Positions 57,001 to 60,000 of a DNA stretch of 64,000 nt are shown here, piece by piece (position 1 is the stretch's first letter; each line of letters opens with the position of its first letter). The DNA is taken from the NCBI GenBank assembly GCA_964641245.1, contig CAZXML010000005.1, positions 2,831 to 66,830 of the forward strand, given 5' to 3'. Made by a program: the position numbers. This stretch comes from an uncultured Gammaproteobacteria bacterium. GTDB taxonomy: Bacteria; Patescibacteriota; Patescibacteriia; Magasanikbacterales; GWA2-37-8.

Positions 57001-60000
57001 CCTTCGTAATTAATTTCCTTTTCTATAAACGGATCTATTCCGCTGACGTTGGTAAATCCGGATTTTCTTAATTTTAATAATAACAGCCCCGAACCGCAGC
57101 CGACATCTAAAATTGCCGAATTAAAATTGAGCTTGGTTTTTTCAAACCACGGATAAAAATCCTCCGGCTCGCGGTATTTTAAGGAGAGAATCCTGCCAAG
57201 CAGGCTGTTTTGTTTAAATACCCTGTATTTTATCAGTTCTTTCTTTAAAAATATTTTTAGAGGGTGGTGTTTATAAGAAATTTGCCCAAAAGAATAGTAG
57301 TTTGGCGGATAATAACGGCTCATATCGGCCGGCGCGTTGATAATTTCCAGACATCCGCATTGCCCGCACTCCAGATATTCAAATTTATCTCTAAATCCAA
57401 ACATCATTTCTTTGGCAATATGCACCTTGTTTCCGTTGTTATTACCGCAAATTCGGCACCGCAATTCTGTGCTCATAAATTACCTCAATTTTGGATTAAA
57501 AACGCGATTTATAGCATAATTTATAGTACAATATATAGATAAGAAGGTCAAATCTCCGCGTAACAGCGCAAAAACCGGCTACTGTTGACAACTAAAGCAA
57601 AGTTTTCTAAACTACACCCAATACTTACACGCAAAATAATGATATTTAATTCATAAAAAACATCTATGAAAATCCTTGTGACCGGCGGAGCCGGCTATAT
57701 TGGTTCTGTTCTTGTTCCGGAATTATTAAATAAGGGGCATCAGGTGCGGGTAATGGACAGCCTGATTTTTGGGCAAACATCGTTATTACCTCATTTTATC
57801 AATGAAAATTTTGAATTTATTAAAGGAGATGTCCGGGATTTTGACTTGGTACAGAAGGCCGTAGACGGCGTGGATGTTATCATTCATCTGGCGGCTATCG
57901 TTGGCGCGCCAGCCTGCAAAAAAGACCCTAAATTGGCCCAGGAAGTAAACCATTTCGGCACAGCCAATGTAAACAACGCCAGAAACGCTTCACAAAAAAT
58001 GTTTTACGCTTCCACCGGAAGTGTTTATGGAAAAGTGGAAGATATCTGCCGCGAGGATCTGCCCACAAAACCATTATCTACTTACGGAGAAACAAAATTA
58101 AGAGCGGAGGAAGAAGTGATGACTAAAGGAAATTCCATTGCCTACAGATTCGCAACCGCCTTTGGCTTATCACCCAGACTGCGGTTAGATTTACTGCCGA
58201 ATGATTTTGTTTTTAACGCCTTAAAAAATCATTGCCTCGTAGTCTACGATAAAAATTTCAAAAGAACTTTTGTTCATGTCCGGGATATTGTGGATGTTTA
58301 TCTTTATGGCATAGAAAACTTTGAAAAAATGAAAAATGAAGTTTACAATGTCGGTTCGGAAAAAATGAATAAAACAAAAGAAGAATTAGCCAATATGATA
58401 AAGGCGCAATTTGATTTTGAAGTTCTGTTTGTAGACAAAGGCATTCCGGATCCTGACCAAAGAGATTATGCTGTTTCCTATGAAAAAATACGCAGCAAGG
58501 GTTTCGAAACAAAAATTTCTTTTGAAAAAGGCATTGAAGAACTTCTGCGCGGTCTGCGAACTGTACACATCACCCACCCTTACTCCAATATTTCCTCCTA
58601 CTAAATTATTATGAAATTAAAGATCCTGATTCTTGGCGGACACGGTTTTGTCGGCAAAAATTTAACATCCGCCTTAAGCGAATCCGGGCATGAAATCATT
58701 TCCGTTTCCAGGGCAGACGGAGTTGATATTAAAAATTATAAAGAACTGGAAAATTATTTAAGCAAAATAAAACCGGATATTATTTTTAATTGCGCCGCTC
58801 ACGTTGGCAGTCTGCATTATGTAACCACCTATGCCGCGGATGTTATCAACGATAATATTCAAATGTCTTTAAATCTGTATAAAGCCGTGGCCGTAGTTTG
58901 CCCCACGGCCAAAATAATCAATCCGCTTTCGAATTGTTCCTACCCCGGCAACAGCAATATTCAAATAGAATCAGAATGGTGGAACGGCGAAGTGCACGAT
59001 TCCGTTTTTTCCTATGGGAATGCCAAAAGAATACTATATGTAATTGCGAAATGCTACGAAAAACAACACAAAATAAAAAGTGTTAATTTTCTTGTCCCCA
59101 ATACTTTTGGTCCGGGTGATTCCACGGACCCCAATAAAACTCACGCTCTAAACGGCATGATTATACGCATGATTGAAGCGCAAAAACGAGGCGACACAGA
59201 ATTTGAAATCTGGGGTACAGGCAGCCCTATCCGAGAATGGGCATATATAGATGATGTTGTCAAAATAATGAAAAAAGGTATAGATACAGAAGAAAATTTA
59301 ATAAATCCCATAAATTTGGCACAAAATAAAGGTTACACAATCAAAGAGTCTGCAAAATTTATTGCCGAGGCGATTGACTATAAAGGAAAATTGGTTTTTA
59401 ACACGGAAAAACCGGACGGGGCGCCGGTAAAAATTCTTGATGATAAAAAATTCAGACAATTATTCCCTGATTTTATTTTTTTTGATCATAAAGAAGGAAT
59501 TGCTAATACAGTTAACTATTACAAATTAATGTTGTCAAAATAATATATGGGCTACGCCGCATATAGGGGCTAAAGCCCATATAATTACGTCGGGTCTCGC
59601 ATAAAAGTAAACTTTTATGACTCAACCTTAGTAATTATAATCTCATTCACCCTGCCTGCCGGCAGGCAGGTCAAAAATATTTTAGCAAGCTAAATATTTT
59701 ATTCATTCATTTCAATTATGAGCAAGCCTTACGAAATCGGCAGTGAAATCAGATTGTGGTCGGCCTATGTGCCGGATGAAACGGGCGCCGAACTGGAAAA
59801 AGTGCTCCGGTCCAAATGGATTAATACCGGAAAACAGGAAGCACTGTTGCGAAAAAGCTTCAGTGAAAAATTTAATATTCCATACGTGGTGGCCACCAAC
59901 AGCGGCACATCTTCATTGCGCGCCAGTCTGGCCATGCTGGGAGTCGGCCCCGGAGACGAAGTGGTCTCTACTCCTTACACTTTTATCGCCACCAACACTT

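Follow-up and report, generated by a model that had tools for sequence, protein, structure and literature searches.

A structured intercistronic spacer in a Magasanikbacterales contig is a nested composite of repeat elements

Introduction

The Patescibacteria, or Candidate Phyla Radiation (CPR), have tiny genomes with few recognisable regulators, and the control of their gene expression is little understood. This work concerns a stretch of 64,000 nucleotides (nt) from an uncultured bacterium placed in the Magasanikbacterales (assembly GCA_964641245.1, contig CAZXML010000005.1, positions 2,831 to 66,830), called the window below. Its spacer at 59544–59717 separates the gene of a 310-aa NAD-dependent epimerase/reductase (58611–59543) from that of a DegT/perosamine-synthetase-like aminotransferase. 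A preliminary description had noticed three successive hairpins there, the last of them a perfect GC-rich palindrome, followed by a shared operator and leader. It had suggested an attenuator, a processing site, a small RNA or a protein-binding site. Why does such a long structured spacer stand inside an apparent operon, and does it belong to that operon? The answer given here is that several repeat elements, nested in one another, make up the spacer, and that it is not an operon-specific control region.

Results

The intergenic spacers of the window were aligned, and a module was recognised that recurs three to four times within it. On the strand of the downstream gene, a stop codon is followed by the hairpin HP1 (TATAKGGGC-loop-GCCSATATA), two bases, the loop L1 (CTCATTCGCTCG), the hairpin P2 of about 28 nt, one base, the loop L2 (CTCACTCATTTCG), three bases and the ATG of the next gene, and the module ends in NNTATG. 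The compact reference, copy A, occupies 54294–54372 on the minus strand at the junction of a flippase gene and a GT2 gene and measures 76 nt without its ATG (54297–54372). Its HP1 lies at 54355–54370, L1 at 54341–54352, P2 at 54313–54340, L2 at 54300–54312 and the ATG at 54294–54296. It scores 86.4 bits with the covariance model of this first family, and it is identical over 68 of 68 nt to a copy with unrelated flanks in L073 (fetched loci are given as L and three digits). Copy B (63151–63282, minus strand), between a DegT gene and a gene for an MptA_B-family membrane protein, is a variant with a long P2. It is composed of HP1 (63261–63282), L1 (63247–63258), an extended P2 (63183–63246), L2 (63170–63182) and the ATG (63151–63153). 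Its HP1, TATATGGGCT-TT-AGCCCATATA, had already been noticed as a recurrence of the first spacer hairpin overlapping a stop codon; its loop indeed contains the TAA (63271–63273) of the DegT gene, which is on the minus strand. Copy D (46848–46886, minus strand) is truncated, with an HP1 (ATATC-TACG-GATAT) and an L1-like CTATTCGCT joined directly to the ATG of a SIS-domain gene. A possible remnant with an L2-like CTCATTCATTTTA lies at 50025–50055 on the same strand, upstream of a methyltransferase gene (49266–50024), and is a weak match to the covariance model (E = 5). Since the genes flanking these copies are unrelated to one another, the module is not tied to a particular gene.

The spacer at 59544–59717 (copy C, plus strand) is an expanded copy of this module, as the preliminary description had proposed. 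All three hairpins and the 20-nt palindrome were found where it had placed them, and the repeat search gave 100% complementarity of the arms. The TAA of the reductase gene (59541–59543) is followed by HP1 at 59544–59583, whose arms TATATGGGCT (59544–59553) and AGCCCATATA (59574–59583) are separated by 20 nt. The hairpin is enlarged by an 18-nt imperfect tandem duplication (59543–59560 and 59561–59578, repeat search). At 59580–59639 lies a module of a second family, which comprises the second of the three hairpins and its flanks. It has a closing helix (TATAATTA, 59580–59587, with TAATTATA, 59632–59639), two loops (CGTCGGGTCTCG, 59588–59599; ACTCAACCTTAG, 59620–59631) and the hairpin CATAAAAG-TAAA-CTTTTATG at 59600–59619, which the repeat search identified as the tip of a longer imperfect hairpin (59580–59608 with 59611–59639). 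The first-family module continues with the 5′ strand of its closing helix P1, TATAAT (59636–59641), complementary to ATTATG at 59715–59720, and with the first part of L1, CTCATTCAC (59642–59650). The strandless GC palindrome CCTGCCTGCCGGCAGGCAGG (59651–59670), perfect over its 20 nt, is cleanly inserted into L1, and TCA at 59671–59673 completes the loop. P2 follows at 59674–59701 as AAAATATTTTAG-CAAG-CTAAATATTTT with one unpaired A. Next come L2 at 59702–59714 (TTCATTCATTTCA, a form of the family consensus CTCACTCATTTCG) and the 3′ strand of P1, ATTATG, which includes the ATG start of the aminotransferase gene (59718–59720).

The region 59538–59730 is predicted to fold as RNA into four hairpins with a minimum free energy of −53.8 kcal/mol, compared with −34.9 ± 3.8 kcal/mol in shuffles (z = −5.0), so the strong structure noted earlier was confirmed. 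The palindrome CCTGCCTGCCGGCAGGCAGG has a single site in the window at up to three mismatches, and shuffles give none; the GC content of the window is about 40%, for a genome previously called AT-rich. The whole window gave no match to Rfam 15 at the gathering threshold, and around copies C and A only sub-threshold noise appeared at E up to 10. Neither promoter-like nor terminator-like sites were called within 59544–59717, 54297–54372 and 63154–63282. A terminator function of HP1 was ruled out, as the T tract is missing.

The family extends well beyond the window. One genome per species was scanned with the P2 allele of the window as the pattern, and 76 loci were returned. About one third of them carry the whole module in near-identical form, and the other two thirds were set aside as chance AT-rich palindromes. 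The metagenome-assembled genomes (MAGs) with full modules are labelled Magasanikbacteria, Parcubacteria and Patescibacteria, and in some cases Gammaproteobacteria or Udaeobacter. When metagenomes were scanned for an L1-gap-L2 pattern, at least 120 stretches were found, many from Hainich 0.1/0.2-µm groundwater filtrates, and the same pattern had 0 matches in the viral contigs scanned. Across all loci, MAGs and metagenome contigs together, at least 177 distinct module copies were parsed, mostly from CPR-labelled genome bins and groundwater metagenomes. In such company, the organism of the window is itself presumably a CPR bacterium. Tandem arrays occur in L032, L038 and L048, and truncated copies also exist. 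The literature, searched by motif strings and by topic (CPR repeats, miniature inverted-repeat transposable elements (MITEs), Shine-Dalgarno sequences), does not describe the module, and only the papers on TIGR-Tas (tandem interspaced guide RNA) systems were related. As far as these tools show, the family is apparently undescribed.

A 17-pair structure was evaluated for covariation in 125 metagenome copies, which had been aligned independently with MAFFT. Standard pairs fill 92.3% of the cells (74.3% in shuffles), and 354 cells are changed on both sides (110 in shuffles). None of 500 shuffles matched the observed covariation value, and in a control with the partners slid by one to three columns 35–51% of the cells were paired. 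On its 5′ side P1 uses the 3′ arm of HP1 and the two bases after it, and its 3′ strand is NNTAT(G), start codon included; the helix has five Watson-Crick pairs and one U·G. HP1 and P1 are mutually exclusive. The junction bases of P1, before L1 and after L2, are Watson-Crick in 117 and 141 of 155 copies, compared with 54 and 75 after shuffling, and the covarying types are TT/AA, TA/TA, AA/TT, AT/AT, TG/CA, AG/CT and AC/GT together with longer variants. P2 is represented by 138 distinct alleles with a mean identity of 57% among the 28-mers. It is almost always a hairpin of 9–12 bp (commonest 11) with a 4-nt loop, and its mean energy is −6.9 kcal/mol (−1.2 kcal/mol in shuffles).

Between the covarying P1 and P2, the two loops (12 and 13 nt) form a near-invariant, pyrimidine-rich internal loop. 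Each is made of three YTCR tetranucleotides, CTCA-TTCG-CTCG in L1 and CTCA-CTCA-(T)TTCG in L2, and only the Y and R positions vary. One base pair joins the 5′ end of L1 to the 3′ end of L2, another the 3′ end of L1 to the 5′ end of L2, and both covary (columns 9–67 and 20–55). Both loops start with CUC and end with CG; the closing pair is C-G in 121 of 125 copies, with U-A and G-C variants, and G-C/A-U also covaries.

These results change the meaning of the shared operator, AAAATATTTTAGCAAGCTAAATATTTT, of the preliminary description. It is merely one allele of P2, whose sequence is free and whose pairing covaries, and therefore a sequence-specific operator is impossible. A promoter at P2 was rejected as well, because the hairpin is hypervariable with covariation, the modules contain no promoter-like site and real promoters stand upstream at variable distance. 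The P2 allele as the mark of a regulon was also discarded, for the AAAATATTTTAGCAAGC... allele precedes atpG, adk, eno, rplX, rpsQ, rplE, proS, pilin-like and sugar genes alike. A role of the loops as a translation enhancer pairing with 16S rRNA, or as an rRNA guide, was dismissed too: neither loop has a complementary 7-mer in the one 16S gene compared (L143). A search for quasi-palindromic guide-RNA targets (L2 plus the reverse complement of L1) returned the modules themselves only.

The history of the spacer can be read from orthologous junctions. The four-gene cassette (dehydratase-like protein, reductase, DegT, 265-aa protein) is kept in relatives, and the junction between the reductase and DegT genes was compared in nine orthologous loci. 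Seven have a spacer of 2–11 nt and no module: 3 nt in L208 (TAA TAT ATG), 2 nt in L209, L210, L202 and L203, 7 nt in L204 and 11 nt in L206. L200 and L201, two contigs of one relative with the same gene map, have 79 nt with one compact module. L200 and the window have derived variants in common, namely L1 CTCATTCACTCA (uninterrupted in L200), L2 TTCATTCATTTCA and HP1 TATACGGGCTACACCGCATATA (unexpanded in L200). Compared with L200, the window has about 72 nt more between the foot of HP1 and L1, namely a partial HP1 duplicate and then TATAATTA, CGTCGGGTCTCG, CATAAAAG-TAAA-CTTTTATG, ACTCAACCTTAG and TAATTATA. It also has the 20-nt palindrome between CTCATTCAC and the TCA of L1. Since the second-family module is absent from L200, it is a later insertion in the window copy, and since the three hairpins trace to different families, three separate repeat elements are stacked in one junction. 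The junction of the first and second genes also carries a module in L200, where the window has 6 nt; gain or loss is frequent between relatives. When the empty junction of L208 and filled junctions are set side by side, the left end reads TATATG and the right end TATG, and because of the TA repeats at such a junction the insertion boundaries cannot be fixed. The sole flanking inverted repeat is P1, which covaries between copies. Since the palindrome splits L1, a function dependent on this loop is probably impaired in the expanded copy, and to judge from its sequence the first-family unit there is probably crippled.

The same comparison bears on the view that the spacer is an attenuator, processing site, small RNA or operator specific to the perosamine-pathway genes. 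Its very stable predicted structure and its place inside an operon between co-directional genes had spoken for this view. The orthologs largely refute it, by the test that the preliminary description had itself set, as the hairpins are not kept at seven of the nine junctions. The same module precedes unrelated housekeeping genes, the operator sequence varies freely, the spacer has neither a terminator-like U tract nor a promoter-like site, and it matches no Rfam family even at the relaxed threshold. An operon-specific device is thus hardly credible. For the module family as a whole, a protein-binding or processing role would be plausible.

The two inserted elements have relatives of their own. 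Those of the second family stand directly before start codons in L098 (~1476–1560, plus strand), L114 (~909, minus), L121 (~1320, minus) and L048 (~1542, minus), in the order ACGTCGGGCTTCG, variable hairpin, ACTCACCCCTAG, TAATT, ATG. Their layout is that of the first family and their loops are different; a pairing of 3–4 bp in mid-loop seems to covary (GGG/CCC, AGG/CCU, GGGU/ACCU). The first-family covariance model gives a weak match to the second-family copy of the window (59578–59641, E = 6.3). Relatives of the GC palindrome, CTGCCTRCCGGYAGGCAG, were found in L088 (9527 and 9954), L107 (4434, 9285 and 11414), L114 (4375), L131 (2701), L197 (2408) and L044 (3285). They are mostly intergenic and often form the tip of larger GC-rich palindromes (..TCATCCTGA..TCAGGATGA.. 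or ..GATTCTTC..GCTCAGAATGAC..). The palindrome is not a feature of the module; it is a separate small repeat, and it looks like a REP-like family of its own.

The placement of the first-family module is precise. In 105 of 159 canonical copies (two thirds) a start codon exactly 3 nt after L2 opens a long open reading frame (ORF), and about a dozen of the other 54 run into another module. A co-directional ORF ends at most 75 nt upstream in 60 of the 159. Wherever a parsed copy has an ORF downstream, the two run in the same direction, with the ATG at a fixed distance. The downstream genes, read from their N-terminal sequences, are unrelated to each other: ribosomal proteins S17, L24, L5, L18 and L31, atpG, adk, eno, uvrA, proS and glycosyltransferases. 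Tandem or long-P2 copies precede ssb, tdk and tRNA-Gly. Modules with a long P2 stand directly before tRNA-Gly in L068 (7380–7600), L038 (~6633), L070 (~1369) and L011 (~497), where a second copy of the initial ~14 nt of the tRNA, together with its complement, makes up the equivalent of HP1; the closing helix therefore pairs with the start of the tRNA, as it does with the ATG at protein genes. In L104 (72–137, minus strand of the locus) a tRNA gene of the opposite strand has its 3′ CCA end directly next to a module, whose closing helix is CTATACCA/TGGTGGAG and whose HP1 is the GC-rich hairpin GGTATAGCGCC-AAA-GGCGCTATACC.

Many loci (L155, L156, L146, L031, L012 and others) have a canonical sigma-70 promoter ahead of HP1, and its distance from the hairpin varies. 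As promoters stand upstream of the modules and none inside them, the modules are transcribed parts of 5′ untranslated or intercistronic regions. In the window a sigma-70-like promoter, TTGACA-17-TAAACT, precedes the four-gene plus-strand operon at 57585–57613 (plus strand). It is conserved in the ortholog L200 and is the likely source of transcripts through the spacer. A motif like the Shine-Dalgarno sequence was found before only 7 of 58 window genes, most starts being preceded by plain A/T-rich sequence; the 16S gene of the related locus L143, the sole one available, has a normal CCUCC tail. Translation initiation in the organism thus seems, from these sequences, largely independent of Shine-Dalgarno pairing. 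Since such motifs are rare window-wide, their lack in L2 is not special.

Several further observations concern the window as a whole. L001, a JGI metagenome contig, is 99.99% identical to the window DNA over 13.6 kb. The sole difference, at 53739 (C in the window, T in L001), changes TGG to TGA in the minus-strand GT2 gene just downstream of copy A, and this gene is called as two pieces in L001. Glycan biosynthesis takes up almost the whole window. Positions 1–57500 carry, on the minus strand, many GT2 and GT1 genes, genes for nucleotide-sugar enzymes and for three B12-binding radical SAM proteins, a carbamoyltransferase gene and a flippase gene. The perosamine-like four-gene cassette (57666–61652) has the plus orientation, at a place where the GC skew levels off, as would fit a block that was inverted or acquired. 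Two GC-rich islands, 38001–40000 (52.5% GC) and 6001–8000 (48.9% GC), hold GC-rich intergenic hairpins (for example 38278–38376, 7048–7200 and 6281–6445). Their genes are among the few with clear Shine-Dalgarno sequences, and the islands are possibly foreign DNA. Two apparent intergenic gaps contain small hydrophobic ORFs on the minus strand, one of 53 aa (35775–35988, MNDTMSLLKQLWNFLRMRKKWW...) and one of 82 aa (43186–43442, MAASLKKILNKLYKYWMKF...), the latter adjoining the carbamoyltransferase gene. In a 545-nt gap of the minus-strand gene map (~13824–14368), the translation read by eye gives an apparent plus-strand gene for ribosomal protein L27 (rpmA), flanked by sigma-70-like promoter sequences.

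Discussion

The module copies form a family with a covarying structure; they reach from stop to start codon, are transcribed from upstream promoters at other loci and turn over between relatives, and in the expanded copy the elements are nested. Taken as a whole, the spacer is best read as three nested repeat elements, among them a mobile stop-to-start module with protein-binding loops, and we lean towards this reading a little beyond an even chance. The ancestral junction held a stop codon, a few bases and a start codon. One first-family module then entered it, and L200 preserves this state. In the lineage of the window, a second-family module entered the TATA-rich foot of HP1 with a partial HP1 duplication, and the 20-nt palindrome of the third repeat family entered loop L1. 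The module may spread by mobility or recombination, entering the TAT(A)TG sites where genes begin. There it may be tolerated or useful, as it would bring its own start-codon context into a lineage mostly devoid of Shine-Dalgarno sequences. The two (YUCR)3 loops are a putative binding site of a multimeric protein. This protein might either stabilise P1 against the competing HP1, and so control translation or processing, or mobilise the element.

Some findings weigh against a mobile, protein-bound module. No transposase, recombinase or RNA-binding partner was identified, and the window proteins include no candidate enzyme gene. Neither a clear target-site duplication nor long terminal inverted repeats were seen. 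Between two genomes, the modules ahead of uvrA show compensatory differences, which suggest constraint in place rather than pure copying and decay. The names Gammaproteobacteria and Udaeobacter of some module-bearing MAGs are database labels as given. The search pattern accounts for part of the L1 and L2 conservation in the metagenome set; copies recovered by their P2 alone are conserved in the same way, so that the pattern does not explain all of it. Finally, on the gene-sense strand A·C mismatches outnumber G·U pairs (58 and 25 in the counted pairs, 39 and 14 within P2), and the P2 loop is CAAG 34 times and CTTG 3 times. Read on the antisense strand, these would be G·U pairs and CUUG tetraloops, which points to the antisense strand or to single-stranded DNA as the folding molecule. 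On the other hand, sense RNA is favoured by the G of AUG, which stands opposite U in 108 of 155 copies, by several HP1 loops of the UNCG type on the sense strand (cUACGg or cUUCGg, by eye) and by the strict co-orientation with genes. The signals on the folding strand conflict. In L006 and L077 the common P2 allele stands in inverted form, with CTTG as its loop and the bulge in the opposite arm, and the L1 and L2 on either side of it have their normal orientation; this suggests that the palindrome was inverted at the DNA level.

In another explanation, one strand, possibly the antisense, folds as single-stranded DNA for a transposase or recombinase, in the manner of REP/RAYT, the ends of IS200/IS605 or integron attC sites. 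Transcription of the module and its position at start codons would then be by-products of target choice (TATG/CATA). Presence or absence at orthologous junctions, with an absence in relatives that looks scarless, would be expected of such a module. The tandem arrays, nested insertions and truncated copies, the identical 68-nt copies in unrelated contexts and the inverted P2 between the same flanks agree with it as well, and the excess mismatches would be G·T on the antisense strand. Against it, the window offers no candidate enzyme gene, and all parsed copies followed by an ORF share its direction and keep a fixed distance to the ATG. In addition, GC skew suggests that the antisense strand is not the lagging-strand template for co-directional genes. 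We regard a purely DNA-level element as possible, though rather unlikely.

Several known systems come close to the module, and nearest in architecture are REP/BIME-type mosaics and the stem-loop tigRNAs treated below. REP/BIME elements of enterobacteria and REPINs of Pseudomonas are short intergenic or intercistronic palindromes in many copies per genome, mosaic or tandem, co-transcribed, and with compensatory changes in their hairpins. The modules resemble them in being interspersed, mosaic, tandem and co-transcribed palindromes with compensatory changes. A REP is an imperfect palindrome of 20–40 nt with a conserved 5′ GTAG-type tetranucleotide, accompanied by a RAYT gene in the genome. Reading of the HP1 and P2 consensus, with no dedicated motif scan, revealed no GTAG-type motif, and no RAYT gene was seen in these contig stretches. 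The modules also have two unlike hairpins separated by conserved single-stranded loops, and they are placed precisely from stop to start with the ATG inside the closing helix. Correia/NEMIS elements of Neisseria, BOX and RUP of Streptococcus and MIRUs of Mycobacterium are likewise small non-coding intergenic repeats transcribed with genes; MIRUs are intercistronic and overlap the flanking stop and start codons, and BOX elements are modular with variable unit number. The present modules are also small, non-coding, intergenic and co-transcribed, but they are much shorter (~75 nt), lack long terminal inverted repeats or an evident TA duplication, combine a hypervariable inner hairpin with invariant loops, and occur mostly in CPR-labelled bins and groundwater metagenomes. 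MITEs are defined by terminal inverted repeats of at least 10 nt and a direct target-site duplication. The ends of IS200/IS605 elements carry two similar hairpins and use a fixed target tetranucleotide. Like these ends, their gene-less derivatives (PATEs) and integron attC sites, all of them recognised through folded hairpins of one strand, the modules have folded hairpins, insertion without obvious duplication and a stem structure better conserved than its sequence; unlike IS200/IS605, HP1 and P2 do not resemble each other and a fixed target tetranucleotide is not seen. In attC sites, the core sites RYYYAAC and GTTRRRY flank a bulged hairpin, with one site per single-gene cassette. These motifs were not seen in the module consensus, by reading only, and several genes lie between successive modules of the window, with housekeeping genes following modules.

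Protein-binding leaders offer a layout analogy for the putative binding site in the favoured reading. Among multimeric regulators that bind RNA, HutP has a site with two sets of three UAG, and the TRAP site is made of GAG/UAG repeats. The modules similarly present two sets of three short repeats (YUCR) with a spacer or hairpin between them, directly before a start codon, and the alternative hairpin HP1 competes for one strand. The repeat motif and its spacing differ, many unrelated genes are served and no candidate protein was found, so the likeness is one of layout only.

A close architectural match is found in the stem-loop tigRNAs, the guide RNAs of TIGR-Tas systems, described from CPR bacteria. 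Their order is stem, box C (CUU/CCA), 8–12 nt, box D (UG/CG), loop or hairpin, box C, spacer, box D and stem, with the C of box C paired to the G of box D (bioRxiv 10.64898/2026.09.09.750476; PMC12045711). The modules show the same pseudo-twofold symmetry, a stem, ~12 nt, a central loop or hairpin, ~12 nt and a stem, with short conserved motifs at both loop ends. Their loops start with CUC and end with CG, the C-G and G-C pairs closing each end covary, and the kinds of organisms and the habitat (CPR, groundwater) are alike. The modules might thus be orphan, dispersed relatives of stem-loop tigRNAs, with a dimeric Nop-domain (Tas-like) protein acting on box C/D-like loop ends in gene regulation. 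There are also differences. The loop ends CUC/CG differ from the published CUU/UG and CCA/UG, the would-be spacers are near-invariant YTCR repeats rather than variable guides of 8–12 nt, and the units stand singly or two to three in tandem at gene starts, whereas tigRNAs form arrays next to a tas gene. In 40 window proteins, which included all within ~15 kb of the modules, Pfam gave neither a Nop nor an IS110-type domain. Seventeen published Tas/Nop sequences had no match in phmmer and hmmsearch comparisons at E ≤ 10 with 4901 ORFs of all fetched loci (1.4 Mb), and the supplements of the TIGR-Tas paper contain neither the motifs of the module nor the names of the MAGs. With invariant spacers, dispersed units and no tas gene in the loci searched, the modules are not classed as TIGR members and the resemblance is taken as a lead; a direct kinship of this kind is very improbable.

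A broader form of the idea would be a lineage-wide CPR system, in which a large share of genes would begin with the two (YUCR)3 sets, held by a helix on either side and read by one multimeric protein. We consider it improbable, if less so than the direct kinship with tigRNAs. If true, the protein might be a Tas/Nop relative, and the modules might be dispersed fixed-sequence cousins or precursors of tigRNAs. They would then form a global post-transcriptional switch for genome-reduced organisms that copies itself onto new start codons.

Conclusions

The long structured spacers of many CPR operons may find their explanation in such modules, and the covariance model can be used to mask or study them in annotation. 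The match in layout with the stem-loop TIGR-Tas guides of the same organisms may bear on the origin of those guides. For the biology of Patescibacteria, the finding means that an element of about 75 nt occupies stop/start junctions, those within ribosomal-protein operons included, and that its presence changes from one close relative to the next. It would be either an undescribed kind of mobile intergenic repeat with start codons as its targets or a general RNA signal acting in cis, and it may be both.

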